Source: Mustelus asterias (Eukaryota). From it: a stretch of DNA of 64,000 nt. Below the pieces are notes generated by a model that was given only the letters and a program-made list of their open reading frames with translations, did not search any database and was not told where the DNA came from. This document shows, piece after piece, positions 15,663 to 60,930 of this stretch. The position numbers and the translations under genes were made by a program. The stretch's first letter is position 1. Each line of letters opens with the position of its first letter. The stretch is taken from contig NW_027590192.1 of the NCBI RefSeq assembly GCF_964213995.1, positions 620,001 through 684,000 of the forward strand, read 5' to 3'.

Positions 15663-15701
15663 AGTTTTCCTACGGCTGTGGGAATGTTTTCTATCACTGT
15701 G
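15663..15701 (-). promoter_or_regulatory. 23-bp-spacer recombination signal of the TCR V pseudogene
   Basis: Minus strand CACAGTG + 23 nt (atagaaaacattcccacagccgt) + AGGAAAACT directly after YYCAFS. Confidence 0.9.
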
Positions 15702-16431
15702 AGACTGAAAGCGCAGTAATACGCAGCAGAGTCAGTCCACTACAGACCCAATGTATTTAAACTAGTCACTTTTTTCCCACTCTGGAGTTGCTGCAAAATC
15801 TGCTTTATCCTCAGTATCCCAGGAGCTTTTACTCACAATAAATTCCGTTTGTAGATCTGGGAGCTGTCGATACCAATCTAAATAAAGTTTAGATTCATTT
15901 ATTTGTCAGAAGTAATGTTTGCATTAACACTGAAATGAAGTTACTGTGGAATCCCCTCGGTCGCCACACTCCGGCGGCTGTTCGGGTCAATGCACCTAAC
16001 CAGGACGTCTTTCAGAATGTGGGAGGAAACCACAGCACGCAGATGAAACCCACGCAGACACGGGGAGAACGTGCAAACTCCACACAGACAGTGACCCAAG
16101 CCAGGAATCAAACCCGCGTCCCTGGTCCTGTGAAGCACTGTGCTACCCTGCCGCCAGTGCCAGCAATAATAGTTGCTGGCTGTGGCATCAAAGGTGCAGG
16201 TCATTGTCACCGCTTCTCCTTGTGCCTTAACATCTGAGGAGCGTCGCTGAGTCACAGAATCTTAGTTAGATCTGGAGAGAGAAGAAATATAATCACATCT
16301 GAACAGTTCAGGCTATAGGGTGCTAAGATTTGAACCGTGCTTGATAAATGCGAGAAAAGATTAAATGTATTTAATCTCCAAGCACCTGCTCGGAATGATC
16401 CGCACACAACCCAGATGCTGAGCAGCCGCAT
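15702..16431 (-). pseudogene. TCR alpha/delta-type V segment pseudogene (leader exon 16386-16431; V exon 15702-16271 split by a SINE)
   Basis: Leader MRLLSIWVVCGSFRA + GT donor (46 nt, phase 1); V: DSVTQRRSSDVKAQGEAVTMTCTFDATASNYY|LDWYRQLPDLQTEFIVSKSSWDTEDKADFA..LQSGKKVTSLNTLGL*WTDSAAYYCAFS; stops, a deletion and a SINE in CDR1. Confidence 0.85.
15894..16155 (-). mobile_element. HE1-related SINE inserted in CDR1 of the TCR V
   Basis: 'ggcggcagggtagcacagtg...cactgtctgtgtggagtttgcacgttctccccgtgtctgcgtggg'; approximate TSD aactattatt/aactttattt. Confidence 0.85.
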
Positions 16432-17209
16432 TGTCGCTTTCCTCTGTGTAAAAGTGAGTTGGGTATTTGACGGTATCTGTTCTACATCCCACTCCCAATA
16501 ATCTGTTGTTGCCTCAAAATGTCTTCACCTCACTCCTTGTATCGCTGGGGACGCTGTGAACCCAGTGGATGGTGAGCTGGTGATTCGCAAATGGAATCAC
16601 CCCGAGCTGGGTGACTCATTCTCAGATTTTGGTTCCAGAATTCACGAGCAGAGTGAGTGTCACTGTCTGGATATACTGACCCCGGATATCGATCTTTTGG
16701 TTTTATTCCATTCGTACTTTCGAATTCCCATTGTCTCATTTGCAGGTAACGGCGACTCCCACTCAGGGGTTTTGTTTTTCTTCACACTTTCAAAGGATTT
16801 CACAATCGCGGCCGATGCTATTATGTGTCGTTCATCCCTAATAGACCCAAGGGATTTGGTTGACATTTTGCTGGTGCTCGTGCTGAAGGCTCCCAACATA
16901 AAAGCTGCTCATTCATTATTAGAGCTACCCAAAGCTAACATAAAGTATATGAAGGACGAGGGCGCCAAGGGTGTTTTGAAAGGAACAATGCGGTCCAGTT
17001 AAAAAGAAATGGCAACAGTTATTCAGTAAAATGAGGCGTTACTGACCAATTTATGCAGTCTGGGATGCGTCGAGCAGCAGATGGGGTTAGACAAAATGTG
17101 GTGTGTCGTTCAGGACAAAAATAAATAAAACATCTTGTTAACGTTCATGTTAGCTTAAACGTTCATCATCGATTTCAAAATAGAACACAGTATACATGTG
17201 AAATACTTC

Positions 17210-18905
17210 ATTCATTGCTCTTCCTGCCAGATGTGGGGGTTCAGGGAGCATTCTAGTGGCCCTGACGGCTATGTCTGCGGTAAGTTTGACTAGCTACAGC
17301 TCCTCACACACAGCATGGTTCGGTTGGAGCAGCAGCTGGACACACTACGGAGCATCCAGGGAGTATAAAGCATGATGGACACTGGCTTCAAAGAAGTAGT
17401 CACAACACTGATCCAGATAGGTCGATGGATGACCTCCAGGAGAGGCAGGCAGGAAATGCAAGAGTCTCCTGTAGCTATTCCCCTCCCATACATATATACC
17501 TTTATAGATTTTGTTGGAGGTTGGGGGCAGATAGACTCTCAGGAGGAAATACCAGCAACAACCAAGCCTGTGGCAACACAACGGGTTCTGCTGGAGAGCA
17601 AGGTCGGGCTAGGTCTTAGCGAGTGATAGTAGAAGGATTCTCGATAGTCAGGGACAGAGAATGACGTTTCTGAGGCAGCGAACGACACTCCCGGATGCAG
17701 TGTACAAGGATCCATGGCTGTCTCTGAGCAGGTACAGGGCATATGAAACGGGAGGGTAAACAGACAGATATCATTGCCCACATTGGCGCTAACGACATAA
17801 ACATGAAGAGGGAGGAGTCCTGCAAAGACGTTTCTGGGAGTTAGGTAGGAATCTACAAAGCAGGACCACGAGGATAGTAATCTCAGGATTGCTGCCAGTG
17901 CCACGTGCTATTGAGGCTTGTCACTGGGATGTCTTCTGTTGTTTGCAGTGTATATAAATGATCTGAAGGAAAATGTGGGTGGTCTGATTAGTAAGTTTGC
18001 AGATGAAACGAAGGTTGGTGGAGTTACTGGTAGTGCTGGGGATTGTCAGAGGATACAGCAGGATCCAGTTAGACTGGAAACTTGGGCACAGAAATGCCAG
18101 ATGGAGGTAAATCGGGACAAATGCGAGGTAATGCATTTTGGAGGATCAGATTTAGGTGTGAGTTACACTGTAAATGGCAGAACCCTTCGGCACATGAACA
18201 TACAGAGAGATCTGGGCATGTGGGTACACATCCACCAAAAAGAGGCAACACAGGTGACCAAGGTGATAAAGAAGGAATATGGCATCCTTACATTCATCGG
18301 CCGGGACATTGAGTAAAATAGTTGGAAAGTCATGTTGCAACTATATAAAACGTTTGTTCTGACGCATTTAGAGTATTGTGTGCAGTTTCCGTTGCCACAG
18401 TACCAGAATGACGTGGAATCTTTGGCGAGAGTGCAAAGAAAGTTCACCAGGACGTTGCCTGGTCTCGAGGGTGTTGGCTGTGAGGAGAGTTTGAATAATC
18501 TAGGATTATTTTCACCAGAAGGACGGAGGCTGAGGGAACTGAGAAGACCAGAGGTCTGCAAAATTACGAGAGGCATAGACAGGATGGATAGTCAAAGGCT
18601 TTTTCCCAGGGCGCAAGTGTCATTTACAAGGGGGGCAGTGGTTCAAGGTGAGAGGGGAAAATTTTAAGGGAAATGTATAGGAGAAGTATTTCACACAGAG
18701 AGTGGAGGGTGCCTGCAACGCTCTGCCAGAGAAGGTTGTGGAAGAAGAGACATAAACAACTTTTAAGAGGCATCTGGATGGGTGCATGAAAAGGGAGGGA
18801 TCTAGATCGAATAAGCATAGGAGGTTTTTTTAGTTAGGGCATTATGATGGACATGGACCTGGCGGACCGAAGGGCCTGTTTTTGTGCTGTACTTTTCCTT
18901 GTTCA
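17210..18905 (+). mobile_element. CR1-type LINE (ORF1 remnants + ORF2 3' part, internally deleted)
   Basis: ORF1-like 'cacattggcgctaacgacata' (HIGxNDI); RT 'YINDL...SKFADETKVGG', 'LEYCVQF'. Confidence 0.85.
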
Positions 18906-19784
18906 ATGTTTTTTGTACTAAATCAATTAAATAAAGGAAATAACTGAAACGCAAAAGGACAAAAGAGTTTCTAACATGACAGAGACAGGAGGAGCTGGTT
19001 TTGTGTTCGAGTTCAGGCTTGAATTTAGCATTTACCATTAGTGCGTCTAATTAATGTTGATGCCAATTGTTGCGGGCTTTGATATCAGTCTTTTAATTGA
19101 TCACAACTTTACCCTTTGAGTCAGCCAGAAAAGTAACAGAGTTTTCTTTAAAAGATTTTAATATAAGCTTTAGCAACGACCCTGGGAAACTACAGTTCAT
19201 ATCCCTGGTTAGAAAGTTAGCCAGAGATATTTCATGATACAAAGGCAACTAAAGTTTTCAAAATCGATGACAAGTAATTAGCATAAACCAATCACAATCA
19301 CTTTATGCTTACTTCATTATAACATCCAATCATCAAGAAAACTTAAGAGTACAACTCGCTTTTGTATCTGTGAATCACTCCCATTTTCCAGTAGTAGATG
19401 TCTAATTCATGTGCTTTGCCAGTCTGATGGCCTTGGTGCCTCTCTATGAAGCTGTTATAAGAAGACTTTTGTTTTTCTTCCTTTGTGAATTTTAAACTTG
19501 TGTGACTATTAACTATTTTACCAACGCATGGTTTTGAGGGAGGGGGACAATGGAATTTGCAGCCAGCACTTTTGCTCATAAAAATAATAGAATCACCCAC
19601 CTTGCCACCCACCGGCAAGAAACCAGGAGTTAATTTGTTTGTTAACCGAAGTGTGAGTAATGTGCATTGTTATAATGTAATTGATCCTCTGGAGACAATC
19701 ACACAGGATAAATGAGATGCCCTTGGAGCGTGTGACATAGCTAAGGTGAACGGGTTGGAGAGTTTTCTCCCTTTGTGAAAAACG

Positions 19785-22700
19785 ATGCATGGACCAGCGA
19801 ATGGCCCTTTCTATGCCGTTTACTATCCCGTTCTCGCTGCAGTTGGCATTCCAGGTAATTTTTTAATTCCAAAAAGAACTTTGTTTTTGTTCGCGATGAT
19901 TATATTGGTTGCATTGTGATGTCTCGACAGAATAGAATGGAGTGAATATTAATCATTCATGTAACTTCTCATGTTCAATAACACTTGTTCTTGTTAGAAA
20001 TATCGAAATGATTTGGAGGAAAATTTAACTGGTTTGATTCGTAAGTTTGCAGGCGACACAAAGATTGGTGGAATTGTGGATAGGGATGATGACTGTCAGA
20101 GGATGCATCAGGATATAGATTTGTTGGAGACCTGGGCAGAGAGATGGTAGATGGAGTTCATAGAACATAGAACAGTACAGCACAGAACAGGCCCTTCGGC
20201 CCAAGATCAAGCTATCCCACTCCCTATCATCCTGGTGTGCTCCATGTGCCTATCCAATAACCGCTTAAATGTTCCTAAAGTGTCTGACTCCACTATCACT
20301 GCAGGCAGTCCATTCCACACCCCAACCACTCTCCGCGTAAAGAACCTACCTCTGATATCCTTCCTGTATCTCCCACCACGAACCCTATAGTTATGCCCCC
20401 TTGTAATAGCTCCATCCACCCGAGGAAATAGACTTTGAACGTTCACTCTATCTATCCCCTTCATCATTTTATAAACCTCTATTAAGTCTCCCCTCAGCCC
20501 CCTCCGCTCCAGAGAGAACAGCCCGAGCTCCCTCAACCTTTCCTCATAAGACCTACCCTCCAAACCAGGCAGCATTCTGGTAAATCTCCTCTGCACTCTT
20601 TCCAGCGCTTCCACATCCTTCTTATAGTGAGGTGACCAGAACTGCCCAAAATATTCCAAATGTGGTCTCACCAAGGTCCTGTACAGTTGCAGCATAACCC
20701 CATGGCTCTTAAACTCCAACCCCCTGTTAATAAAAGCTAACACACTATAGGCCTTCTTCACAGCTCTATCCACTTGAGTGGCAACCTTTAGAGATCTGGG
20801 GATATGAACTCCAAGATCTCTCTGTTCCTCCACACTCTTCGGAACCCTACCTTTGACCCTGTAATCCACATTTAAATTAGTCCTACCAAAATGAATCACC
20901 TCACATTTATCAGGGTTAAACTCCGGAGAAATGTGAGGTAATGCAGAAAGTTCAATCCGGAGAAATGTGAGGTAATGCATTTTGGAAGGTCTGATAAAGT
21001 TGGGAAATATACAGTAAATGGCTGATCCCTTAAGAGTATTGATAGGCAGAGTAATCTGGGTATACAGCTACGCAGGTCACTGAAAGTGGCAATGCAGGTG
21101 GAGAAGGTAGTCAAGATGGCATATGGCATGCTTGCTTTCATCAGCCAGGGCATTCAGTTGAAAAATTGGCAAGTCATATTGCAGTCTTATTGAATCTTAG
21201 TTAGGCCGCACTTGGGAAATAATGTTCAATTCTGTTCGCCACACTACCAGAAGGATGTGGAGTCATTGGAGAGGGTACAGAAAAGACTTTCGAAAATGTT
21301 GCCTGGAAGGAAGGGCATTAGCTATGAGGAGAGGTTGGAGAAACTTGGTTTGTTCTCACTGCAACGACGGAGGCTGAGGGGCGACCTGATAGTCGTCTAA
21401 AGGATTATGAGGGTCATGGACAGAGTAGATAATCAGAAGGTTCTTCCCAGGGCACAAGAGTCAATTACTAGGAGGCATAGGTTTACGGTGTGAAGGGCAA
21501 ATATTAAAGGACATTTACGAGGCAAATTCTCTACACAGAGAGTGGTGGGTGCCTGGAACTCGCTGCCAGGTGAGGTAGTGGAAACAGGTGCAACCGTGAC
21601 TTTTAAGTGGCGTCTTGACAAGTACATGAATAGGATGGGAATAGAGGGATAATGTTCCCAGATTGGTCGGGTATTTTTTTCAGTTCAGTCGGGCAGCATG
21701 GCCGGTGCAGGCTTTTAGGGCCGCAGTGCCTGCTCTTGTCCTGTAATTTTCTTTGTTCTTTGTTATTTGTTCTTAAAACGTGAAACCTTCTGGTGTAGAT
21801 CTTCTGTTAAATATGAGGTTTGTGGGCTTCAATTCAAACGATAATGCCCTGACCAGGATCCGAAAAGAAAGGCCTAATGTTTGGAATCAGATTTTCAACA
21901 TTTTTAACCCTCCCTTACAGCCAATTTGATGGCTATCGTGATCCTATCCAGAGGACGGTGTGGACTGTCCCAGTGCATCACCTACTACCTGGTGGCAATC
22001 GCGGTGACTGATTTCCTGGTTATGATTTCTGCTGTCATCCTCAACCGGATTGGTGGCATTTACTTTCGATATAGTGTCCTCTCCACCACCCCCGGGTGCA
22101 CGGTCAGCAGCGTCCTGGTATATACCACCCGTGATGGGTCCGTCTGGCTGACTGTAGCCTTCACCATCGACCGTTTTGTGGCCATCTGCTGCCAGAGCCT
22201 GAAGACCAGATACTGCACCGAGAAAACAGCATTGCTGGTTATCGGAATAGTCTGTGCACTGAGCTGTGTCAAAAACATCCCTTTCTTCTTCACCTATCAG
22301 CCCTTGTATATCCTAGACGGGGTGCCTTGGTTCTGTGATATCAAGTCCACCTTCTACACGTTAACCATCTGGCAGGCCTATCTCTGGCTAGACCGCATAT
22401 TAACACCATTGTTTCCATTCTTCCTGATCCTGCTGCTCAACGCTCTGACTGTGAGGCACATCTTAGCAGCCAGCAGGGCCCGCAGGAGACTCCGGGGTTC
22501 CGAGAGTCGGGGAGACATGGAGATGGAAAACCGCAAGCGGTCTATTGTCCTGCTTTTCGCCATCTCCCTCAGCTTCCTCCTCCTGTGGGTCATATATGTC
22601 GGTCATTTCCTCTACGTACAGATTTCGGGTGAGCCATACTTCACCGGCCTGGATTTCAATGACCCGCAGTACATCCTTCAGGAGACGACCAACATGCTGC

Positions 22701-22822
22701 AACTACTTAGCTCCTGTACTAACATCTTCATTTACGCAGTGATTCAGACCAGATTCAGGGAAGAGATCAAGAACCTGTTGATGTCTCCGTTCGCCACCCT
22801 CAAAGGTTTTCTGAAACGGTGA
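19785..22822 (+). CDS. GPR139-like class A GPCR, 323 aa, two exons (19785-19854, 21921-22822)
   Basis: Exon 1 MHGPANGPFYAVYYPVLAAVGIP + G|GTAA; acceptor ttacag|CC gives in-frame ANLMAIVILSRG...; seven hydrophobic segments; motifs GIPANL, YLVAIAVTD, SVWLTVAFTIDRFVAIC, NIFIY match the GPR139/GPR142 family; no stops; AATAAA at 22938. Confidence 0.9.
20007..21775 (+). mobile_element. CR1-type LINE in the GPCR intron (host element)
   Basis: RT C-terminus 'KFA.DTKIGG...MEF|NPEKCEVMHFG...QKDVESLERVQ'; (ttctttg)n tail. Confidence 0.85.
20159..20924 (-). mobile_element. Young CR1 3' fragment nested antisense in the host CR1
   Basis: Uninterrupted ~240-aa ORF 'EFNPDKCEVIHFGR...RRGLRGDLIEVYK...VWNGLP'; (ttctatg)n tail. 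Confidence 0.9.
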
Positions 22823-23223: not shown

Positions 23224-23377
23224 TTGCAGAGTAAAGCAAAACAGATATCGTGGCTGGAATTTCGAAATGTGAGAGTTGAAGACACCGTTTCCTATTACGG
23301 TGAAGCTCCGTACTGGTATGATGACTGGTCTGGGACTCACAATGGAAGCAACCTGAACAGATATCTGTGCAAAATTA
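23224..23377 (+). pseudogene. Relic 3' end of a NAR/NAR-TCR-like V domain with RSS (heptamer 23338-23344)
   Basis: SKAKQISWLEFRNVRVEDTVSYYGEA (FR3-like, Cys TGT->GGT) + PYWYDDWSGT, then CACAATG + 23/24 nt + (T)GCAAAATT(A). Confidence 0.55.
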
Positions 23378-35385: not shown

Positions 35386-35431
35386 ATGAGGTCGACGATT
35401 TCTCTCAGTTTGTTGCTGACTTTCTTATCCG
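35386..35431 (+). CDS. IgH leader exon (MRSTISLSLLLTFLS)
   Basis: 46-nt phase-1 exon ending G|GTGAG; in-frame upstream ATG at 35374; TATTTAAA at ~35287. Confidence 0.9.
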
Positions 35432-35558
35432 GTGAGCAGATTTATTGTCCAAGCCTCTCACTGTTACTGTCTCATTGTTATTTTATCTATGGAATGTTGC
35501 AGAGTCAGCAATCATTTCACCAGGATTAATCCTCTTGTTTTTTGATATATTTGTACAG

Positions 35559-35874
35559 GTGTCCAGTCGGAGATTATGTTAGCTCAGCCAAAAGCAGAGC
35601 CCGGGCATCCCGGAGGCTCCGTGAGACTGACCAGCAAAACCTACGGGTTCAATCTCGGTAGCGCTCACATGCACTGGATCCGACAGGTTCCCGGAGAGGC
35701 GCCGGAGTGGTTGGTTTACGACCAAACTTCATCAAGCAACCTGTACGCCCCAGGGATTCAGAATCGATTTACTCCCTCCAAAGACACTTCAACCAACATC
35801 TTCTCTTTGGCCGTAACTGACCTGAAGACCCAAGACACCGCCATCTATTACTGTGCAGTAGACCATGGGGGTAT
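35559..35874 (+). CDS. IgM VH exon with germline-joined D
   Basis: tacag|GT GTC CAG TCG then [49 protein letters not shown]...[13 protein letters not shown]; first Cys is AGC (Ser). Confidence 0.9.
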
Positions 35875-35902
35875 CACAGCATTAACTGCCAACACAAAAG
35901 TC
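35875..35902 (+). promoter_or_regulatory. 12-bp-spacer RSS after the VD segment
   Basis: CACAGCA + ttaactgccaac (12) + ACAAAAGTC. Confidence 0.9.
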
Positions 35903-36229
35903 CCCTCAGCGCGTATTAAGTGAGGCTAGGTCAGTGTCGCTTTTACAGTCCAACTCTATTTACAGTGAAGTACTGTTTATGTTCAACTCTGTTCAAATAA
36001 CACAGTTTAACATGGGAGATCTGTGATAACCATTCAATTATCAGTCGGTATTTTCAATAACATGTTCATGTGACACTCTGTGAAATAGAAAAGATTCCGA
36101 TCATTTATGGAGAGCGAATGGTACTAAAAATACAATTATAATTTCATGAAAATTCATTGTGAATTTACTTTGCCGCAAGATTATGAATATTTTTTTAAAA
36201 GGTGGTTTATGTCGTTTTTGTGCAGATCC

Positions 36230-36268
36230 GGTTATTGAATCACCCAGCCCAGGGGGTGTAACACAGTG
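36230..36268 (-). promoter_or_regulatory. 23-bp-spacer RSS of JH
   Basis: GGTTATTGA + 23 nt (atcacccagcccagggggtgtaa) + CACAGTG immediately 5' of J. Confidence 0.8.
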
Positions 36269-36316
36269 ATCCTATGGACGACTGGGGACAAGGGACCATG
36301 TTGACGGTGACTGCAG
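36269..36316 (+). CDS. JH segment (PMDDWGQGTMLTVTA)
   Basis: WGQG motif; GCAG|GTATG donor. Confidence 0.95.
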
Positions 36317-37137: not shown

Positions 37138-37680
37138 TTAGAACATGGAAAAACTCCAGCACAAACAGGCCCTTCGGCCCACAAGTTGTGCCGAACACAT
37201 CCCTACCTTCTAGACCTACCTATAACCCTCTATCCTATTAAGCTCCATGTACTCATCCAGGAGTCTCTTAAAAGACCCTATTGAGTTCGCCTCCACCACC
37301 ACTGACGGGAGCCGATTCCACTCGCCCACCAGCCTCTGTGTGAAAGACTTCCCCCTAACATCTCCCCTGTACCTACCCCCCAGCACCTTAAACCTGTGTC
37401 CTCTCGTAGCAGACATTTCCACCCTGGGAAAAAGCCTCCGAGAGTCCACCCGATCTATGCCTCTCGACATCTTATACACCTCTATTAGGTCTCCTCTCAT
37501 CCTTCGTCTCTCCAAGGAGAAAAGACCGAGCTCCCTCAGCCTACCCTCATAAGGCATGCCACTCAATCCAGGCAACATCCTTGTAAATCTCCTCTGCACC
37601 CGTTCAATCTTTTCCACATCCTTCCTATAGTGAGGCGACCAGAACTGAGCACAGTACTCCAAGTGGGGTCTGACGAGGGT
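37138..37680 (-). mobile_element. Young CR1 3' fragment in the J-C intron
   Basis: Open 'TLVRPHLEYCAQFWSPHYRKDV...RRRMRGDLIEVYK'. Confidence 0.9.
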
Positions 37681-39064: not shown

Positions 39065-40945
39065 ATCCTAACTCACCGTCAGACTCCCTCACCCTCACTC
39101 TCACTCACCCTCACTCATGCACTCTCACTCACGCATGCTCACTCACTCACCTTCCCTTGAGCAACTCCACACACGCAACTCTCTCATCGTCATTCACCCA
39201 ACCTAACGCACCCACACTCACACACCCTCATTAACTCAGCCTCACTCACCCATCCTCATTCACTCACCCTCACACTCACCCTCATTCAGCCACCACCACT
39301 CATCCACCCTCAATCACTCACCTTCACTTACTCACCCTCACCCACCGTCACTCAACATCATTCGTGCACTCTCACTCATGTATACTCACTCACATCCACT
39401 TACTCACCCTCACTCGCTCAACCTTACTCATATCACTCACTCACCTTCGCGTAACCACCCTCACTCACTCACTCATGCACCCTCACACACGGACCCTCAC
39501 TCTCCCACTCTCGCTCACCCACCCTCACTCAGTCACTCAAACACCCTCATTCACTCACCCTCACACACTGTAACTGACCCACTCTCACTCGCACCGTAGC
39601 TCACCCACCCTCATCCACCCTCACACATTCACCCTCATTTAATCCCTTCACTCAGCCACCATCACTCATCCATCCTCACTCATTCACATTCACTCACTAA
39701 CCTTCACATGTTCAGCTTTACTCACACATGCTCACTTGCTCACACTCACTCGCCCACCCACACTCACACATTCGTTCACTCACCTGCCCTCGCTCACTCA
39801 CCCATTCTCAGGTCACCGTCAGACTCCCTCACCCTCACTCATGCACCCTCACTCACGCATGCTCATTCACTCACCTTCACTTGCTCAACTTCGTGCACTC
39901 AACTTTACTCTCTCATCTTCATTCACCCAACCTAACGCTCCCACAATCACACACCCTCACACACTCAGCCTCACTCACCCATCCTCACTCACTCATAGAA
40001 ATCATAGAAATTATAGAAACCCTACAGTACAGAAAGAGCCCATTCGGTCCATCGAGTCTGCACCGACCACAATCCCACCCAGGCCCTACCCCCATATCCC
40101 AACATATTTACCCACTAATCCCTCTAACCTACACATCTCAGGACAGTAAGGGCAATTTTTAGCATGGCCAATCAATCTAACCCGCACATCTTTGGACTGT
40201 GGGAGGAAAACAGAGCACCCGGAGGAAACCCACGCAGACACGAGGAGAATGTACAAATTCCACACAGGCAGTGATCCAAGCCGGGAATCGAACCCAGGTC
40301 CCTGGAGCTGTGAAGCAGCGGCGCTAACCACCGTGCTACCGTGCCGCCCCTCCACGCTCATCCTCACTCATTCATCCTCACTCACTCACCGTCGCCCATC
40401 CTCTCTCATCCGCCCTCAATCAATCATCCTCACTCACACCTTAACTCACCCCACCTCATTCACCCATCCTCACTGGCTCAAACTTTCACACATGCACCTT
40501 CACTCTCTCACCCTCTTGCGCCTCTTCACTAACTCACCCCTTTCAATTACTCACCCTCACTCACCCTTTCTCACTCTCTCACCCACTCTCACTTGCTTTC
40601 AATGAATCCATCCCCAACCGCACTCATACTTACTGACACAATATCATTCACTCACCCTCAGCCACTCACCCTCAGTCATCCACCATTATTCAATCCACAT
40701 TAATCATACTCCCTAATTTACACACAGTCCCTCAGTCATCACCAACACCCTCACACTCTCACCATTATTTCCCCGCCTTCAATCCCGCATCCTTGCTTGT
40801 TCAGCATCATCCTTCCACCCTCAGTGACTCACCATCACCCACCCACATTCACTCAGCTACAATCACTCACTCACCATCAGTCATTCACTCACTGATATTC
40901 ACTCACTTACTCATTCACTCTGTCACACTCAGCGTGCACAATCAC
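39065..40945. repeat. (TCAC/CCTCAC)-rich low-complexity tract with internal ~180-bp duplication
   Basis: C/A/T-rich and G-poor on +; 'tcaccgtcagactccctcaccctcactc' at ~39074 and ~39813. Confidence 0.85.
39994..40349 (-). mobile_element. Full-length HE1-type V-SINE inside the TCAC tract
   Basis: Head 'gggcggcacggtagcacggtggttagcgccgctgcttcacagctccaggg' to (tttctatga)n tail. Confidence 0.9.
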
Positions 40946-41789
40946 TCTCCCAGAGAGCCGGGGGAAAGTGCAGAGTGTCGTGGTAAGGGAAGAAAGCTGG
41001 AGAAGAATACCCAGAGCCCTGGTAGTGGACAGAGCGCCAGGGGCAGTTGCAGAAAGATGAGGGAGATCACATCGAGCCAAAGAAGAGGGCAGAGAGCACT
41101 GGGAAAGTGCAGAGAGCCGGGAGTAAGGAGAAAGTGCCAGGCAAAATGCAGAGAACCAGGAGAAAGGAAAATGTGCCGGGGGGAAGTGCTGACAACCGAG
41201 GGAATGTGCAGACTGCTGGTTATCGGATTTGGGGATGGAATATGGAGCTAATAATCGGTTCATCCATGATCTTACTGAATGGTGAATGATGTTCAAGGGA
41301 CTGAATGGCCTATTGTAGCTGTTAAAACATTATCCGAATATAAGAGAATGTTACAATTGATGAATTGCTACTTTATTGAGAGTTTTATGGGCATAATGGA
41401 AGAAATACTCCCGACGGTATTATTGAAGAAAATTCACTATTCTATGTTTTGTGGAGTGCGGTGGACGGGTGGGCAGGGGATTAGTGAGCGAGTGAGAGGA
41501 GGGAGCATCAGTCAGTTTGAAAAAAAGGCAATTTCCAAACTGCAATGACAAAAATGAAGAGACAAATTCTTCACCACAACGTGCTGTTGATTGTGAACGA
41601 GTCTCTGAAATAATGCAAAGAATCTCTGCTGTTCTCTTTTAATCCAATGAATGTATGTCATTCAGATAACAGCAGAATGTATTCTTATTATGCCGGGATA
41701 GAAACGGAGAAAGAGATGTGAGTTTCTATAGGGGACAATCAGTGCAGAAACCTAAACGATAGAAGGGGAATACAGGGAATACAGGTACA

Positions 41790-42490
41790 GAATACAGGTA
41801 CAGAATTCCCTAAAAGTGACGTCACAGGTGGATAAGGTCGTAAAGAATGCCTTTGGTATATTGGCCTTTATCAATCGGAGTATCGAGTATATAAGTTGGA
41901 GTGTTATGGTAAGGTTATATAAGGCATTAGTGAGGCCGAATTTGGAGTATTGTGTACAGTTTTGGTCACCTAGTTACAGGAAGGATGTAAATAAGGTTGA
42001 AAGAGTGCAGAGAAGGTTCACAAGGATGTTGCCGGAACTTGAGAAGCTCAGTTACAGAGAGAGATTGAATAGATTGGGACTTTATTCCCTGGAGCGTAGA
42101 AGATTGAGAGGAGATTTGATAGAGGTGTATAAGATTTTGATGGGTATAGATGGAGTGAATGCAAGCAGGCTTTTTCCGCTGAGGCTAGGGGAGAAAGAAA
42201 CCAGAGGGCATGGGTTAAGGGTGAACGGAGAAAAGTTTAAAGGGAATATTAGGGGGGGCTTCTTCACGCAGAGAGTGGTGGGAGTGTGGAATGAGCTGCC
42301 GGATAAAGTGGTAAATGCCACTTTTAACATTTAAGAAAAACTTGGACGGGTTCATGGATGAGAGGGGTGTGGAGGGACATGGTCCAAGAGCAGGTCAGTG
42401 GGACTAGGCAAAAAATGGTTCGGCACAGACAAGAAGGGCCAAAAGGCCTGTTTCAGAGCTGTAATTTACTATGGGTTCAATGGTTCTAAG
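41790..42490 (+). mobile_element. Young CR1 3' fragment
   Basis: 172-aa open frame 'QVDKVVKNAFGILAFI...RRRLRGDLIEVYK...VWNELP'. Confidence 0.9.
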
Positions 42491-42631
42491 TAGTAGAATA
42501 TCAAATGAGGCTGACGATTTGAAAACGAAGCTGTGAAGATCGGATCATAGTTGTAGTCGAATTATTAATTGCTTGATTGCTTATTAAAGAATAACAGAGT
42601 GTAATTTGTTTAATCGGTCATTCTTTGCTAG

Positions 42632-42928
42632 CAGCGCCATCTCCGCCTACTCTCTACAGCCTGGTCTCCTGTCAGCAACGCAATTTCGATGGCTCCATCA
42701 CCTATGGCTGTTTGGCGATGGGCTACTCTCCAGAAATCACCAGCCTGAACTGGAAGAAGGATGGGCAGCCGATCACCACTGGATTTAAGACTTACCCATC
42801 AGTAAGAAACATGATGGGAACCTCCACCCCGAGTCGCAAGTTAACCATCACTGAGTCAGAGGGAGCATGCAGCAAAATCAACTGTGAGGTTCGACACAGC
42901 GGTTCAGACCATAGCATTGAAATGCAAT
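42632..42928 (+). CDS. IgM CH1 exon
   Basis: ctag|CA: [16 protein letters not shown]...[10 protein letters not shown]...WKKDG...CEVRHSG; T|GTAAGT donor. Confidence 0.95.
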
Positions 42929-43129
42929 GTAAGTATTGAGGATCCTAGGAAGAACAGAAACACTGTTATTAAACTGTATCGAGCCTTGGTTATAACACAT
43001 ACATCGAAATCTCCATAGTCCTACTCCCTGAAATAAACGACTCTGGTGTCGCCTGATGGAAAATAAATTGTCAAAATATCAGGAATTTTATTTGTCATCA
43101 AAACATTCTACAAGAAATGTTTCTTGAAG

Positions 43130-43444
43130 GTCCGAAAGATGACATCCCTCCAACCGTTATGCTCACCGTGAGCTCCAGTGAAGAAATCACAAGCAGCAAA
43201 GTTGTAACCATCGACTGTTCAATCGTCGGTTTCTATCCAAAGTCAGTGGCGGTGAAATGGCTGAAGAATGGACAACCCATGGATTCAGGAATTGTCACCT
43301 CTCCAGCCTGCAAAGTGAACGGGAACTCCTCGGCGAGCATGCGGCTGACAGTCTCCGCTCGGGAATGGTTCAGCAAAGCGGTTTACACCTGCCAGGTCAC
43401 TCATCAAGAACTCACCCAAATTCGGAACATCACCAGATCTTTGG
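43130..43444 (+). CDS. IgM CH2 exon
   Basis: gaag|GT: [14 protein letters not shown]...[19 protein letters not shown]...YTCQVTH; G|GTAAG donor. Confidence 0.95.
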
Positions 43445-44053
43445 GTAAGAGGAACCGACCATCAACCAATAAATCATTGTGCAGTCCGATGTTAATGAAC
43501 ATCAGGAATTCATTGAAGTTAATCCAAAGCACAGGACAACTTCTAATTTACTGCCATGTATTTCATTCTGATTTAAGAACTGCATTCGGATTGTTCAACA
43601 TTTAGGATTTTATCTGAACAGGAAATAATGTTTCCCTCTACTTTGATATCATATAGTGTGTAAGGTGGACTTGACGTCAGCTTTGGCCTGAGGCATCTCA
43701 GAATATTTAGAGAGAAAGAGAGAGTGGGTGTCTGACATCATTTTTCAGGTAACAGATTCAGGATAAAGAGTTGAAAATTGTATCCCCTCTATTCAATGTG
43801 TTTTCCTGAGATCAGGAATGGTATATTTGTATTGGAAATGGTGCAATGTTTATTCATTAGAATGAAGGAGTTTAACGAAGAGAATAGTTTTCACAGGCCA
43901 AGCTGATTTTCCAGTGTGGAGAGAAGATAAAAGGCGACAATTAGAGTTTGATATCTGAAAGTTGATTTATTCCCATTTAGAGAATGAAGGCTGAATAATT
44001 CTGTTATGATTCTGAAGAGGGAACTAGGGTTGATTTTCAGTATCCATTCACAG

Positions 44054-44362
44054 ATCGTTCCCACTGTACTCAGTCCACAGTGACAATACTGCCACCGCGA
44101 ATGGAACAGGTCTTACAGGAGGCGACCATAACATCAACCTGCGTCATTTCTGATGCTCCTTATGGAGTCAGCGTGTCCTGGATCCCAGAAAAGAAGACTT
44201 TGAAATCAGAGATTGCCGAAAAGCCTGGAGAGGATCCTGACAGCGTGGTCAGCAATTTAAACATCTCGACACAAGCCTGGCTGAGTGCGGCTGTGTTTGA
44301 CTGCGTGGTGAGCCATCAGGATCTGCCGACTCCTTTAAGAAATTCCACCCACAAGAAAGAAG
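44054..44362 (+). CDS. IgM CH3 exon
   Basis: cacag|AT: [23 protein letters not shown]...VSW...[14 protein letters not shown]; G|GTGAG donor. Confidence 0.95.
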
Positions 44363-44654
44363 GTGAGTGGAGAGTCATTGTGCCTACTTCCAGTGTAATT
44401 GTAAAGTGAATGTTTAATATTCGTTGCATTTCTGGTCTACCAGAATTGGTAATTCCACTAACTAATCACTCTGGGACTATAGAATTTTTACTGGGGAAAT
44501 TGAGAAGTAGATGAAAGAAATTGAACTGAAGGGGTTTTTTTTTACATAAAAACTTCCTTGTAAAAAATGACTTTCAACATTTTTTCCCCAAACTTCCTGC
44601 AAGTTTACTCTCTCTGGAAGATTTTTGTTCAATTTTGGGTTTAGGTGGAGTAAG

Positions 44655-44965
44655 ACCATGCACCAGACAACGTAAGAGCAGAAGTAAGTCACTTGGTCCT
44701 CGACATGCCCATTCTGGCTTGCAGGAAAATCCTGATTGATCTGACATTGTAATACTCCATTCTACTTTCCCGCCTTATCCCCATAACCCTTGATTCCCTG
44801 ACTGATTACAAATCTGTCCATATCATACTTAACGACCCAGCCACTACAGCCCTCTGCGATAATTACTTCCTTAGATTCGTTACCATCTGAGAGAGGAAAT
44901 TCCTCCTCATCTCTCTCAACAATGGGCGACCCTTTCTCTGAGATTATACACTCGGCTCCTGGACT
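44655..44965 (-). mobile_element. Degenerate CR1 3' fragment
   Basis: 'GWVVKYDMDRFVISQGIKGYGDKAGK' CR1-type C-terminus. Confidence 0.6.
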
Positions 44966-45668
44966 CTGCCACAAGAGGCAAAAAAACAGTAAGAGGGTTG
45001 TTCCTCTGATCGAAGGAAAGATATACTGGCATTGGAAACAGTCAAAAGAAAGTCCAGTAAGTTCATCACGGGTAAGGAAGGATTTTCTTATGTTGAGAGG
45101 ATAGATAAGTTAGTCTTGTGCTTATTGGACCTTACTGAGACTTGTAGGACTCTCAGGATTCTTGACACGGTCGACGCTGATAGATTTCCATTTTCACCTT
45201 TTTGATCTGTCCAGTTTCCCAGCTCGGCGCGGAGATGGATACACTTTTCTCTGGGAAATTAACGGGTTGGATTAGGAAGTTTCAGTAATTTACAGCACAG
45301 AAACAGGTAATTTGACCCTACTGCTCTATGTTTAACCTCCGTACCAGGCTCTTCTCATCTTCTTCCAGAGGTTCAAGGGAAACAAATAAATGTAATTTAC
45401 TTGGATTTCTCAAAGCCTTCAATAAGGAACCGCACTGAAGGCAATTTAAGAAGAAAAAAAAACCCTTCGTGCTGGTGGTAGTATATCAGCATGGATAGAG
45501 AATTGGCTTACTAACAGAAGACAGAGAGTCTGGATCAGGGTAAAATTTCAGGCTGGTAAAGTTTAACCAGTGGAGTGCCACCGGTACTATTTCTCTAACA
45601 TCTGGCTCGCCGTTTCATTGTGTCCGGAATTCTCCAGTTTATTGACATTTATTCTACATTTTCGGCAG

Positions 45669-46060
45669 ATCCACATCCGTGGGAACCGTCCGCCTCTGTC
45701 CTCCTGCCCTCTGCAGAAGAAGTCTCCGCTCAGAGATTCGTCTCCCTCAGCTACTCAGTGAGACGTTTCTCTCCCCGAGAGATCTTCGTCAAGTGGACCG
45801 TCAACGACAAGCCACTGAATCCTGGGAACTAGAGGAACACCGAGGTGATGGCGGAGATCGGCAATAGCTCCTTCTTCATTTACAGTCTGTTATCCATTGC
45901 AACGGAGGAGTGGGCTAGCGGCGCTTCTTACTCCTGTGTGGTGGGACATGAAGCCATCCCCTTGAAGATCATCAACAGAACGGTTGATAAATCCAGCGAT
46001 ATACCCAGTTTTGTGAACATTTTCCTTGCACTGATGGACACCGTCAACTCATGTCAATGA
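45669..46060 (+). pseudogene. IgM CH4 + secretory tail exon with premature stop (TAG 45830-45832)
   Basis: [24 protein letters not shown](C->Y)[14 protein letters not shown]...N*RNTEV...[41 protein letters not shown]; AATAAA at 46088 and 46096. Confidence 0.9.
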
Positions 46061-47244
46061 GAATCAAACAGTTGCATTCAAAACTTCAATAAAATAATAA
46101 ATGACGAATGAAAATACCCAATCACTGACCTGATTGTTTTCCATTCTTACTTCCGTTTGATCTCTTTGACTTACATCTGATATTCAGAGAGTGTCGGATC
46201 CGTCTTGTGGAACCAAAGCTCCCACCTCAGATACATCCTGACTTACAGATAGACTGGAGATCATTCATCACAGGATACTGAGATATAACTTCACCAACCT
46301 TCCTCCCGCTGAGCAGAAATCTGACGATTTCCCATTTCCGATGAACAAACACAGCACATTTAGATCTCTGTGTTCCTGTTTCTTTCTTTGTCCATCTCTT
46401 TAACCTTGACGTCAGCTTGAAGTTGTTGCACCACACCCACTGGGAACTGAAGCGAGGGTCACAAAGAAACATGGAAGAACAAGCCCCCATCAGAGAGAAT
46501 GGCAGGGAGTGAAATGGTTAACACACTGGACTCCTACTCACCCAACAAAGAGAGTGGAGGGGCATTAGTTTACTCACTGTACCCCCACTCTCCCAAAAAA
46601 GAGATGGGAGCGACAATAGTTAGCCCCATGTACCACCATAAAACAAATACAGAGAGGGCGTTGGGGCATTATTTATCCAATTATACTCCCACTTTCCCAA
46701 TGAAAAGATGAGAACGTTATCATTCAGCCAACTGCACCTCAACAGATGGAGCCAAAAGTAAAAATTGCTCCATCACTGAGAACGGGAAGCGATGACTTCA
46801 CTATCCTTCCTCTCCCCAAGCAGAGAGTTTTAGAAAGGAAGAGCTGCCGAATGTAAGGATTCAGTTGCCAACTGAAGATATTGACTTCTGGTTTACTTGC
46901 CGCAGATTTTGAAATCTCATCATGCTAATCTTTTTACTGAATATGCATTTATGCAACATAATTTTAATGTGTTTTAACTCTCTTGTTCCTATTAATCATT
47001 TGCTGCCATTGATACATCATATTCCAAATTTAAACCAATGATTGAATCCTCCCTGGTTTTCACTGTTCTGTCCTGGAGTTTTCTGAGATGCAAAAATGAA
47101 TTATTTCATTCGGTCAGCTGATGTCACCTTGTCACTCACATGCAAGAAAATTATACACCAAACATTGAAAATATGCTGCATAATTCGTATTGTCAGGTTA
47201 ATGATTGCCGGTGAAACTTGGAATACCAGTTAAAAAATACACAT

Positions 47245-49030
47245 AGTGACAATACTGCAGAAAACTGACACAATTACAAGTACACATATAGACATACACA
47301 TCCACACCCATCAACACAAATGCACAAATACAAACACAAATACACATACTCACATTTATGCTCACAAATGCACAGACACGCAAATGTGTACGCATAGACA
47401 CACATGCATACACCACACAATCACGTATATCCATATGCACATTTATGGATAACACATACAAATACAGACAAACAAATATAGACACAGAAGCACATGTTTG
47501 CACAACGCACGCACACATACACAAAATCACAGGCACACATATGCATACATAAATATGCACAAACGCATTCGCCCACAAAAACACGCACAACACAGGCACC
47601 ACTGAACACACATACAGAGGAGCAATGGCAGTCACACCAACACACCCATACACGCAGATTTAAAAACACAGATTGACATACCCACAAATAAACACATACG
47701 AAATTATGCAGATGCACAAATGCACACATGGGCACACACAAATACACAATTGCTCAAACAGGCACAAAAACAAATACATACACACAAGCAATCAAATTAA
47801 ATAATCACACACAAACCCGCACACACATACACATACAAACATGCAAGTGCACGCATACATGCACATACACGAATATTTACACAGACCCACACACATAAAA
47901 CATACATACATATACACAAATAAGGACAGACACATACACACATGCAGAGCCACATAAATCTGCGAACACACATACACTGAAACAAATACATATATATTAG
48001 CACACGTTAATGCTGAGAGGAATATAGATATAAAGACAAACAATACCACACACATTAACACACATAGCACATTATAATCACATATAAGCACATTAGCAGA
48101 TTATACACAGGCACATAGATGAACAGAGAGCAAAACATTCACACGAAAATATGCAGACGTAAGCATTAACATGCTCATACAGAGCAGAACACCACTACAC
48201 GCATTAGTGCACATGGAGACACAAACACATATCAACACATAGGGTCATCGAGTCATAGAGGATTACAGCACGGAAACAGGCCCTTCGGTCCAACTTATCC
48301 ATGCCGCCCTTTTTTTTAAACCCCTAAGCTCATCCCAATTGCCCGCATTTGGCCCATATCCCTCTATACCCATCATACCCATGTAACTATCTAAATGCTT
48401 TTTAAAAGACAAAATTGTACCCGCTTCTGTTACTTCTGGCAGCTTGTTCCAGACACTCACCACACTCTGTGTGAACAAATTTCTCGTCTGAACACTTTTG
48501 TATCTCTCCCCTCTCACCTTAAACCTATGCCTTCCAGTTTTAGACTCCCCTACCTTTGGGAAAATATATTGATTATCTAGCTGACCTATGTCCCTTATTA
48601 TTTTATAGACCTCTATGAGATCTAGAACATAGTTATAAAGAACTATCAAGATGTAAATACATACAGTAACGCATTAACAGACACGCGCACAGACTCAGAG
48701 AAATGGAAATAAACATTAATAGTCTGATAGAAATGTGGAATACAAAAAGGGGGATCATTACCGAGCAACAGGCACGAACACATGCGCATGCATTACGGGT
48801 GGCATTAAGAAATAAGCATAGATTTCACACAATAATGCAGTCATACACACAGAATTGCAGAAGAATAAAATATACACACTGTTGAAGGCACACAAATACC
48901 CAAATGAACATTCATAGGGAAATGAACACGGACATTAACACTCATACATATTAACTCGGAATCAAAGATTAATGCAGAACACGAGATGCTCATACGCACA
49001 GCACAAATATAAAATTTTAAATACAAACGG
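47245..49030. repeat. Degenerate (CA/CATA)-rich tract, interrupted by CR1
   Basis: Directly visible AC-rich low complexity; the His/Thr and Cys/Val ORFs are artefacts. Confidence 0.85.
48243..48622 (-). mobile_element. CR1 3' fragment
   Basis: 'DLIEVYKIIR...FTQSVVSVWNKLP'. Confidence 0.9.
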
Positions 49031-49589
49031 CAAGCAACTGATTGAAATAAAATTCAAACTTGACTATGTTAATTGGCACATCCTCTGAAAACTGTCCGTA
49101 TTATACAATGAACGGACAAATACACACTGAGAAACTAGTTAATGATATATTAAACATTTCGAACATAACTAAACATAGAGGATGGGAACTCACATCTGAA
49201 TTCCTAAACAACAAAATTCATAGTTTGCAGATCAGTAGCAATCTGCTAAAATAATCATCATTGATCAGTGAACGTTCCTCGATATCAACTATAACATACT
49301 TCAATAAGGGATAGTGCCAAACTGTTCGAAAATGGACTGATTCTGAAGAAAAATTCTTAAGGACTATCCGACAGATTCTGTCTAAGGAATGCAAATAATG
49401 AACAATTGTGAAGATAGTTACGGAGATCGGTTACTGAGTCTCCCGAACTTAACAGTAGATATAGTTTAAAAATTAATTTTGAGAATAAATTAATAGCGTA
49501 AGAAAGTGAAAATGTAATATAGAACTAACAATAAAATTTCCTGGATCAATTAAGTAAATTAATTATATTTCCTTGTCTACGTCCCCTAG

Positions 49590-49800
49590 ACTCCACAGAC
49601 CGCATCTGGGTTGAAGACAATGAGGATCATAATGGCAACAGATGGACAACCGCTTCCGCGTTCATCGTCCTAATCTTCCTAAGCATTTTCTACAGCATCG
49701 CAATCAGAAGGGATTTGAAAAACCCCTAAATGTTTCCTTGATTAAAAACTTTTTAAATCATCTGCTTCATTCTTTTATCTCTCTTTTCCAGCTCAAATGA
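49590..49800 (+). pseudogene. IgM TM1 (from 49590, 3' end/donor deleted) and TM2 (49792-49800)
   Basis: ctag|AC: DSTDRIWVEDNEDHNGNRWTTASAFIVLIFLSIFYSIA (CART-like motif), runs into the intron; ttccag|CTC AAA TGA corresponds to the VK* exon. Confidence 0.85.
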
Positions 49801-59605: not shown

Positions 59606-59610
59606 TAATT

Positions 59611-60015: not shown

Positions 60016-60230
60016 CTAATTTCCCACATCTGGCAGGAGGACCATACCACTGCCCCAACTGTCATACTGCCTTCAAACAGGTAAAAGGATAAAATAATCT
60101 CAGCCCACCTTTCCCTTGATTGTAGCCCTCCCAAAGTCTTTTTTTTTGGTTCGAGGAAAAGGTAGGCACGGAAACACTGAAGTAGCGTTTGGCGTTTAGC
60201 TGTCCCTTTACAACAGCTCCTCCACAGACT

Positions 60231-60568
60231 ACCTTCTGGTCGCAGTGACTGCGACAATGCAAATCTTACCTGCAACAGACAATCAGCCCCGCCACTCTGC
60301 TGCCCTCACCTGGACACTTACCTTCACACGAATATGGAGCGTCCCTTCCGGACGTCCACCTTCTGGTCGCAGTGACTGCGTTGATGCAAATCTCACCTGC
60401 AACAGCCAATCAGCTCCGCCGCTCTGCTGCCCTCACCTGGAAACTTGCTTCACACAAAGATGGAGGGTGCCTTCCGGACGTCCACCTTCTGGTCGCAATG
60501 ACAGCGCTGATGCAAATCTTACCTGCAACAACCAATCAGTTCCGTCGCTCTGCTGCCCTGACCTGGAC
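60231..60568. repeat. Tandem repeat, ~126-bp unit x ~2.7
   Basis: 'accttctggtcgca(g/a)tgac' at 60231, 60358, 60484. Confidence 0.9.
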
Positions 60569-60596
60569 GTGATGATCTTTTCATGTCCTTGTGAAG

Positions 60597-60891
60597 GAGA
60601 TTCTGTCACCCAGCCGCCCTCATTAGATATAAAGAAAGAATGAGATGCAGTGATATTGACCAGTACGCATAATACTACAGTGAAGAACTATATATCATGC
60701 TGGTACCGACAATACCCAGATACACAGCCCGAGTTTGTATTCTTGAAAAACTCCTGGGATTCTGCGGTCAAAGCATATTTTGCCAAAATCCCTTTCTCTG
60801 CTGAGCTCCAGATTGAGAATAAATTTACCAGATTAACAAGCTCTGGGCTGGAGGAGAATGACTCTGCCTTGCATTACTGTGCTATCAGTCT
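60597..60891 (+). pseudogene. TCR alpha/delta-type V segment pseudogene (no leader visible)
   Basis: DSVTQPPSLDIKKE*DAVILTS(C->S)THNTTVKNYISCWYRQYPDTQPEFVFLKNSWDS...FSAELQIENKFTRLTSSGLEENDSALHYCAIS; in-frame TGA. Confidence 0.85.
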
Positions 60892-60930
60892 CACAGTTTT
60901 AGCATTCAATCTGATCACCGTACAAGAACT
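60892..60930 (+). promoter_or_regulatory. 23-bp-spacer RSS
   Basis: CACAGTT + 23 nt (ttagcattcaatctgatcaccgt) + ACAAGAACT. Confidence 0.88.

Follow-up and report, generated by a model that had tools for sequence, protein, structure and literature searches.

The stretch of Mustelus asterias DNA analysed here (64,000 nucleotides, hereafter the window) lies on an unplaced contig of 797 kb (C160) in an assembly of 5313 contigs. It holds an IgM heavy-chain cluster between two TCR alpha/delta V segments, V1 and V2, together with the remnant of a NARTCR V and a GPCR gene (Table 1).

Table 1. Features of the window, with positions counted from its first nucleotide
Feature	Position	Strand	Remark
V1 23-RSS	15663..15701	minus	heptamer canonical, nonamer degenerate
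V1 V exon	16271-15702	minus	TCR alpha/delta V pseudogene; split leader
V1 leader	16431-16386	minus	
Rhodopsin-family GPCR gene	19785-22822	plus	intact; exons 19785-19854, 21921-22822
NARTCR V 3' end, joined to its D	23229-23337	plus	
12-RSS of NARTCR D	23338-23365	plus	
IgM leader	35386-35431	plus	
IgM V fused to D	35559-35874	plus	V-D pre-joined
IgM VH 12-RSS	35875-35902	plus	
JH and upstream 23-spacer signal	36230..36316	plus	J at 36269
C-mu1	42632-42928	plus	open frame
C-mu2	43130-43444	plus	open frame
C-mu3	about 44053-44362	plus	open frame
C-mu4 and secretory tail	45669-46060	plus	two lesions
IgM TM1	from 49590	plus	broken
IgM TM2	49792-49800	plus	
V2 V exon	60585-60891 (start approximate)	plus	TCR alpha/delta V pseudogene
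V2 23-RSS	60892-60930	plus	heptamer and nonamer both weakened

All exons of an IgM minicluster (L-V-D-J-C-mu1-4-TM) were present and in order, and the window matched the V-set and C1-set families of Pfam. RSS-like motifs numbered 6 in the window, modestly more than chance would give (20 shuffles had a mean of 2.7 and a maximum of 5), and the RSS calls were accepted because the motifs directly abut the V and J ends. A sequence-only reading of the locus had called the cluster complete, which holds for the exon set but not for an intact gene: the VH has a Ser in place of its first Cys (35633-35635), C-mu4 carries a Cys-to-Tyr change (45752-45754) and an in-frame TAG (45830-45832), and alignment to an intact cluster at 7.08 Mb of scaffold C71 revealed a 46-base deletion that takes the end and splice donor of TM1. 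The VH frame is open, with leader and splice sites intact, and CH1 is 83% identical to an intact IgM cluster; the canonical Cys, the open CH4 and the spliceable TM of a functional IgM gene are all wanting. Both C-mu4 lesions were shared by five of the 20 CH4 loci read, every one in the window's duplicate family, with the remaining 15 intact, and the first Cys of the VH is retained in the copy on contig C770.

The two flanking V segments are likewise broken. The 23-RSS of V1 reads AGGAAAACT, and that of its intact relative L014 reads ACAAAAACT. CDR1 of V1 is interrupted by a SINE-like repeat of ~280 bases (~15885-16166), for which we found 163 matches across the window and the retrieved loci, and V1 is 76% identical to L014 on either side of this insert; its FR3 has a 17-base deletion and a stop at 15742-15740. 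V2 was 73% identical in nucleotides to intact V genes (E 1.6e-45) and has a TGA at 60641-60643, has lost its first Cys, and has a splice acceptor changed from AG to AT; a leader was looked for and not found. Neither segment therefore combines a split leader with an intact frame, V1 having a leader and a broken exon and V2 having neither leader nor acceptor. In a V tree built without Ig light-chain or non-rearranging IgSF rows, both fell into a 19-row clade (support 97/81) of leader-bearing TCR alpha/delta Vs. The sister of this clade is the V of P0095, a TCR-delta chain model from a sawshark, while VH, IgH-like V-delta, NAR V and supporting V all fall elsewhere, so V1 and V2 are not IgH-like. 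Each ends at an RSS without J sequence, unlike the unsplit VJ exon of a non-rearranging IgSF receptor. Protein searches with an intact V2 relative returned no curated TRAV, TRDV or TAILV names, only automatically named shark models, and a PDB search with the same query did not tell TCR from antibody V. The assignment of both segments to the TCR alpha/delta type with 23-RSS was thus borne out at the positions first given. Their divergent orientation is also real, but we rejected the local inversion that had been proposed as a special event, since V1 and V2 share merely 65% over 271 bases and mixed orientation is the norm, both V orientations being common on C160.

The NAR-like V end noted earlier at 23.3 kb was correctly placed and typed, and can now be named more precisely as the end of a V-D-joined NARTCR V. 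It has lost its second Cys, has no leader, 5' V or J, and is 82% identical to intact NAR-type V ends, with a 3' flank that matches the sequence downstream of D in cassettes that are not joined. Its closest intact relatives have a Cys in their a-b loop and no Trp in WYRK, a region that is deleted in the window. In those relatives the NARTCR V has a D and J of its own, placed upstream of a leaderless supporting V-delta; in the window the D is fused, and neither a supporting V nor a NARTCR J was found. The GPCR gene, which had gone unmentioned, is intact (7tm_1 in Pfam, E 2.4e-22; spliced frame open, GT-AG), and no other intact gene turned up in the interval. We take it to be GPR139/142-like; it had no PDB match at 1e-10.

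The whole block recurs elsewhere in the assembly. For V2, CH4 and the NAR remnant alike, we obtained 5-6 matches each, with identities of 97-100%; the three sets fall on the same contigs and at matching spacing. The window is collinear with C71 at 8.265-8.322 Mb (98.8% over 33.4 kb, the C71 copy being without window positions 35599-42488), with C447 (99.5% over 25.7 kb) and with C770, whose copy is without 41765-48245. Distinct deletions of several kb and substitutions of 1-6% separate these copies. The C71 copy could be an allele or a paralogue of the window. The three exons used as queries (V2, VH-J and CH4) were all 100% identical in C447, which may be the window locus assembled a second time. 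Because the block recurs collinearly with different deletions, we regard it as a segmental duplicate and not as the one-off mis-assembly that the sequence-only reading had named as its refutation; that reading's other proposal, a "graveyard" co-duplicated from a mixed Ig/TCR region, agrees with the copies on other contigs and with the broken state of every immune segment.

Based on these data, we put the probability at roughly 0.8 that the window is a dead fragment of the shark antigen-receptor complex: its IgM cluster, two TCR Vs and NARTCR remnant are each broken, and segmental duplication likely copied them as one block. RAG activity in germ cells, as described for shark Ig genes, would have produced the VH-D and NAR-V-D joins, and blockwise amplification of a mixed Ig/TCR region would have carried IgM, TCR V, NARTCR and GPCR/zinc-finger passengers in each block. 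The redundant copies would then have decayed, the shared lesions dating from before the most recent duplications and the deletions that differ between copies from a later phase.

C160 itself is without TCR constant genes: no TCR D-J-C was found between 490 and 794 kb (304 kb) or in the window, and none of the 19 C-delta exons of the assembly lies there. This and its unplaced state would suit an orphon block on another chromosome, outside the antigen-receptor complex. We consider such an origin very unlikely, since a near-identical collinear block lies on C71 (20.4 Mb) amid at least ten C-mu4 exons, three C-delta cassettes, and a J-alpha array with C-alpha. Further evidence against it comes from intact TCR Vs with perfect 23-RSS, found 2.3 kb past the window end and at 722.8 kb of C160 with a NARTCR V and a supporting V between them, and from a supporting-V pseudogene that lies 19 kb beyond the window and shares 99.8% identity with a V found in a D-delta join on C401, although that V also has close paralogues on further contigs. 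IgH miniclusters and TCR alpha/delta genes thus share one scaffold in C71, and TCR Vs do lie between IgH clusters; linkage of the window to TCR constant genes rests on the 98.8% C71 copy. Proteasome searches, in which subunits were not told apart, gave 28 matches, none on C71 or C160; PSMB5 is a marker of the complex.

The same intact segments beyond the window would be expected at the boundary of a single, conventional TRA/TRD translocon in which an IgM cluster is embedded, the other origin first suggested, and TCR alpha/delta has the translocon form in four elasmobranchs (PMC12227049). That origin now appears very unlikely. C160 has no D-J-C in the 304 kb searched and no C-delta, and on C71 a distance of 1.1 Mb separates the window copy from the closest C-delta and one of 10 Mb separates it from J-alpha. 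The canonical order is 5'-TRDC-(TRAJ)n-TRAC-3' (PMC10322711), and it fails here: on C71, the first J-alpha has no C-delta, no V and no gap in the 320 kb upstream, which contradicts a translocon unless C71 is misjoined near 18.37 Mb; C546, the second contig with J-alpha and C-alpha, has none of the C-delta exons, and none of the 19 adjoins C-alpha.

The C-delta genes are found instead in many places. The assembly has 19 C-delta Ig exons and 19 TM exons, a DNA search again returning 19 of 19, spread over 17 contigs, three of them on C71 and the rest on 16 unplaced contigs, and the best PDB matches of the query were human TCR-delta chains. All 14 exons read were open, and they comprised ten distinct sequences, 89-100% identical, with one set of three and two sets of two identical exons. 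In the 70 kb upstream, and on the strand of the exon itself, 16 of the 19 exons have a supporting V and 11 have an IgH-like V, the IgH-like family having 14 matches, mostly within the cassettes. Thirty supporting-V loci were found, one of which (C90) could not be parsed. Most C-delta exons sit in cassettes of NAR-V-D-J, supporting V, D, J and C, with an anatomy that was read in six places; the supporting V-delta has no leader and carries a CDR1 Cys, and one cassette lies directly behind an IgM cluster. In a minority of cassettes the supporting V is V-D-joined, which we take as germline; one such junction is common to C436, C119 and C96. The joins on C850 and C401 were not counted as such, being single cases and possibly lymphocyte rearrangements in the assembly.

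Haplotype duplicates may inflate the count of 19, but ten distinct sequences require at least five loci in a diploid. A chimeric contig combined with uncollapsed haplotypes could in principle produce both the mosaic and the many copies, and the 5313 contigs, the identity of C447 at three exons, the identical C-delta exons on separate contigs and the match of C850 to C71 (99.84% over 31 kb) are all of the kind that it predicts. We nevertheless judge it very unlikely, given the distinct deletions and substitutions of the window copies, the number of distinct C-delta sequences, and the three C-delta exons of C71, which are megabases apart and differ in upstream content. None of the sequencing runs listed as containing a C-delta exon was RNA. 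A comparison with four contig-only runs of unrecorded kind was swamped by repeats; contigs of X1 and X5 break at the C-delta exon borders and continue in other letters beyond, but contig depth gives no copy number, and this observation was not counted as evidence.

The amplification proposed for the window likely also multiplied TCR-delta into cassettes, each with NAR V-D-J, leaderless supporting V-delta, often an IgH-like V, D-delta, J-delta, C-delta and TM. From the genomic layout, it is probable that houndshark TCR-delta has left the TCR-alpha locus and now forms from at least five to about 19 antibody-style miniclusters among the IgM clusters, with some joins between cassettes and a layout convergent on TCR-mu, the window being a decayed by-product.

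Under the 12/23 rule, two 12-spacer signals cannot join. The D-delta and J-delta acceptor signals are 12-RSS, like that of the window VH, so this VH cannot join a TCR-delta D or J. Its open frame, leader and splice sites might suggest a live VH donor to TCR-delta; with 12-spacer signals on both sides and the first Cys lost, this is extremely unlikely, and the earlier view of the window cluster as a physical basis for Ig-TCR V exchange fails on the same signals and on the dead state of the gene. Exchange is instead predicted at C-delta cassettes such as that at 7.06-7.14 Mb of C71, where an open-frame VH with a 23-RSS (7.06-7.12 Mb) lies 56 kb upstream of D-delta on the same strand. The cassette layout likely lets antibody-type segments join TCR genes over short distances.

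By itself, the window is another dead example of an arrangement that is, in kind, already published (PMC12227049), and the genome context weighs more. Shark Ig genes are usually described as miniclusters and shark TCR genes as translocons (PMC6795676, PMC12227049), a rule that many C-delta cassettes would break; no report of multiple C-delta cassettes in a shark appeared among the titles and abstracts searched, which mostly lay outside subscription papers. If our reading is true, a shark has a cluster-type TCR locus and "trans" Ig-to-TCR rearrangement becomes a short cis deletion. The VH upstream of D-delta and the IgH-like Vs of the 11 cassettes would give exact places for Ig-V use by TCR-delta. 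Many cassettes would also pose an exclusion problem for T cells, which must make one delta chain from many loci, as with multi-cluster shark Ig. Because the C-delta copies differ in sequence, a transcript can be traced to its cassette, making joining within and between cassettes measurable.

The window resembles the antigen-receptor complex of Flajnik et al. 2025 (PMC12227049), in which TCR alpha/delta V exons and NARTCR V lie in both orientations between IgM miniclusters, some of them pseudogenes, over ~10 Mb. For white shark, Table S1 of that paper gives an IgM marked "pseudo?" beside TCR V pseudogenes and a NARTCR V, and both V orientations are common in the table. The same table gives one C-delta-bearing model adjoining C-alpha in stingray and catshark, in contrast to the 19 in cassettes here. 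The IgM cluster has the plan of germline-joined (VD-J) shark IgH miniclusters (PMC6795676), namely L-V(D)-12RSS, 23RSS-J, C-mu1-4, secretory tail and TM1-2, but is a pseudogene with three independent lesions. Intact relatives of the NAR remnant share with NARTCR (PMC1845163) the a-b loop Cys, the missing WYRK Trp, the leaderless supporting V-delta and the CDR1 Cys; the window keeps only a V-D-joined 3' remnant, and most cassettes genome-wide have their own D-J-C-delta.

Marsupial and monotreme TCR-mu (PMC7615758) offers a likeness in layout only: repeated units of V-D-J, second V and C, a three-domain chain and a germline-joined second V, without common descent as a locus and with an outer domain that is NAR-type in the shark but VH-like in TCR-mu. 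The shark second V is furthermore of TCR-delta type, only V-D-joined and that in a minority of cassettes, and the units are scattered among IgM clusters. Germline-joined TCR segments were called unique to TCR-mu in 2023 (PMC7615758) and later found in a newt (PMC12698447, 2025), and the V-D-joined shark cassettes would add another case. The newt has TRD apart from TRA, two TRA loci and a germline-joined TRD V (PMC12698447), and birds have a second TCR-delta locus (cited in PMC7615758); those animals have one or two TRD units, whereas the houndshark has at least five, and up to 19, interleaved with IgM.

Every element named by the sequence-only reading was found at its position in the window, and the antigen-receptor parts were all broken. 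The IgM cluster, described there as complete, does hold the full exon set, but its V, CH4 and TM1 are damaged: the first Cys of V is replaced by Ser, CH4 has one Cys changed to Tyr and also an in-frame TAG, and 46 bases are missing from TM1, the splice donor among them. Both CH4 lesions were present in 5 of the 20 CH4 loci read, all five from the window's duplicate family, and were therefore inherited rather than introduced by sequencing error. VH and D form one fused segment, at whose end stands a 12-spacer recombination signal (RSS) like that 3' of D2 in an intact cluster. The NAR-like V relic proved to be what is left of a NARTCR-type V, its 3' end, which is fused to the V's own D and followed by the 12-RSS of that D; the window yielded no NAR leader, J, supporting V (the leaderless V-delta paired with NARTCR V), D-delta, J-delta or C-delta. 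Of the two flanking V pseudogenes, V1 has a leader, a ~280-base repeat inserted in CDR1, an FR3 short by 17 bases and followed by a stop, and a degenerate nonamer, while V2 has no detectable leader, a splice acceptor changed from AG to AT, one TGA and no first Cys. The only intact gene found in the window was a two-exon rhodopsin-type GPCR.

In a tree of 44 rows, none of them light-chain or non-rearranging, V1 and V2 grouped with intact genome relatives (support 96/84) within a supported clade (97/81) of shark V genes bearing leaders, separate from VH, IgH-like V-delta, NAR V and supporting V. Sister to their clade was a V from a sawshark gene model; the C region that follows it in the model finds its best PDB matches in human TCR-delta chains. 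Both fall in a TCR alpha/delta-type V clade, as had been proposed, and each terminates at a 23-RSS without J sequence; DNA cannot tell alpha from delta use for either.

Among the best 40 scored of 175, 110 and 50 candidates, respectively, V2, CH4 and the NAR remnant each gave 5-6 matches at 97-100%, located on C160 (the window's contig) and on contigs C447, C444, C88, C71 and C770 of the same assembly (CH4 not on C770). Three copies were compared directly with the window and all were collinear with it, that on C71 at 98.8% over 33.4 kb, that on C447 at 99.5% over 25.7 kb, and that on C770. The C71 copy is without most of V and without D and J; missing from the C770 copy is the stretch from the C-mu1 3' flank to C-mu4. 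Because the collinear copies lie on other contigs, the juxtaposition of Ig and TCR pieces has been assembled several times with differing lesions, which speaks against the mis-assembly considered at the outset, although C447 may be a redundant haplotype of the window. The protein encoded by exon 2 of the GPCR is unchanged in the C71 copy and shows a single-residue difference in C770, while the adjacent immune genes decay.

The suggestion that this cluster provides a physical basis for Ig-TCR V exchange did not survive. Under the 12/23 rule, a 12-spacer signal cannot join another 12-spacer signal; the window VH carries a 12-spacer signal, as do the upstream side of D-delta and J-delta, so that this VH cannot join either. 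On C71, the copy of the block is separated by 1.1 Mb from the closest C-delta and by 10 Mb from J-alpha. On C160, the 304 kb around the window contained TCR Vs from several families, which run in either orientation and include two intact members with perfect signals; pairs of NARTCR V with supporting V were also present, as were GPCR genes. A walk along these 304 kb, as the sequence-only reading had proposed, met no TCR D-J-C, and a DNA search (19/19 candidates) placed no C-delta on C160. These surroundings match the elasmobranch antigen receptor complex of PMC12227049, which locates TCR alpha/delta V exons between IgH clusters and, in Table S1 for white shark, IgM pseudogenes next to TCR V pseudogenes and NARTCR V over ~9 Mb. 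The arrangement is real and already known in kind, and the window adds one new, dead member to the pattern.

TCR-delta cassettes were located elsewhere. A protein search (70/70 candidates scored) found 19 C-delta Ig exons with 19 matching TM exons, and the DNA search returned the same 19/19 on 17 contigs, three of the exons being on C71. All 14 C-delta exons read were open, and 10 were distinct (89-100% identity), which in a diploid implies five loci or more. When 21 of 40 listed supporting-V positions and 14 IgH-like V positions were used, a supporting V lay on the same strand within the 70 kb upstream of 16/19 C-delta, and an IgH-like V did so for 11/19. The automatic gene models of Mustelus asterias contain these C-delta sequences and are not independent evidence. 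Anatomy was read at six cassettes. The first on C71 begins with an open-frame IgM cluster and continues with NAR V-D-J, a supporting V that has no leader and carries a CDR1 Cys, a V of unusual type, a pair of IgH-like Vs of which one is open, D-delta (12/23), three J-delta, C-delta and TM. The VH of this IgM cluster is on the strand of D-delta, 56 kb upstream of it, and carries a 23-spacer signal. The third has the same TCR layout, and the second has a broken IgM cluster with conventional Vs behind it, the last of which is already joined to D-delta.

Such joins were present at 5 of 29 supporting-V loci parsed. One junction is common to contigs C436, C119 and C96 despite 2-5% divergence around it, which indicates that a join made in the germline was then copied by duplication. 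The other two joins are single cases: that on C850 matches C154 on its 5' side (99.5%) and C71 at 12.25 Mb on its 3' side (99.84%), and the V of that on C401 matches, at 99.8% over 853 bases, a pseudo supporting V 19 kb beyond the window. These two could be germline or lymphocyte in origin; whichever applies, they suggest recombination between cassettes.

Coordinates of features in the window and on other contigs
Contig	Position	Strand	Feature
Window	15702-16431	minus	V1
Window	19785-22822		GPCR gene; same family interspersed with V segments here and at C160:602617 and 713663
Window	23.2-23.4 kb		NARTCR-type V relic
Window	35386-49800	plus	IgM cluster
Window	39083-40900; 47200-48230		Long CTCA-rich and CA-rich simple repeats in J-C and C-TM introns
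Window	60231-60567		126-base tandem repeat (2.7 copies) at place expected for V2 leader and intron
Window	~60585-60891	plus	V2
Window	~61700-61950	minus	Broken C2H2 zinc-finger remnant; zinc-finger genes likewise fill 320 kb upstream of C71 J-alpha
C160	686.3 kb; 722.8 kb		Intact TCR Vs
C160	699854-703625		NAR V with 12-RSS and supporting V facing inverted broken NAR V/supporting V pair; no C-delta
C160	703109-703353		Tandem stack of 23-spacer signals (2-5 per stack, 61-base spacing) behind supporting V-delta
C71	7091239-7091300; 12229725-12229847		Further stacks of this kind
C71	7.06-7.14 Mb		First cassette (C-delta at 7.14 Mb)
C71	7097676-7097972; 12235995		Long-branch V exon inside C-delta cassettes; two extra cysteines, no clear signal
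C71	8.265-8.322 Mb		Copy of window block
C71	11.0 Mb		Second cassette (C-delta at 11.04 Mb)
C71	10998800-10999330		IgM V fully V-D-J-joined, leader exon inverted mid-V; broken cluster directly upstream of C-delta cassette
C71	12.22-12.27 Mb		Third cassette (C-delta at 12.27 Mb)
C71	18.37-18.43 Mb		J-alpha array and C-alpha
C546	160000-242100		Second J-alpha array and C-alpha
C850	35980-36330		V-to-D-delta join; no untemplated bases
C401	584-900		V-to-D-delta join, its two sides resembling different cassettes; no untemplated bases except one palindromic base

TCR-alpha was found apart from these cassettes. The C71 array has 37 J-alpha motifs, and the 320 kb before it are gap-free and contain neither C-delta nor V; that on C546 has 64 motifs in the 40 kb read; the C-alpha exons of the two are 84.5% identical, and no C-delta match lies near either locus. 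The canonical order TRDC-TRAJ-TRAC, as given in PMC10322711, was not found in this assembly.

Beyond the directly observed lesions, copies, cassette anatomy and signal spacers, RAG may have joined segments in the germline, a mixed Ig/TCR region would have been duplicated in blocks, and redundant copies would then have decayed; the intact cassettes are predicted to be used by gamma-delta T cells. Provided that read depth bears it out, the spread of TCR-delta over many antibody-style cassettes would surprise specialists. Shark TCR genes are described as translocons in PMC6795676, and no earlier report of multiple C-delta cassettes in sharks was found in a literature that covered the primary shark TCR-delta papers only in part, so prior mention is possible. 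With their V-D-J, second V and C, the shark cassettes work like marsupial TCR-mu clusters (PMC7615758) in layout but are not TCR-mu; newt TRD, according to PMC12698447, is likewise separate from TRA, and the newt has one or two units.
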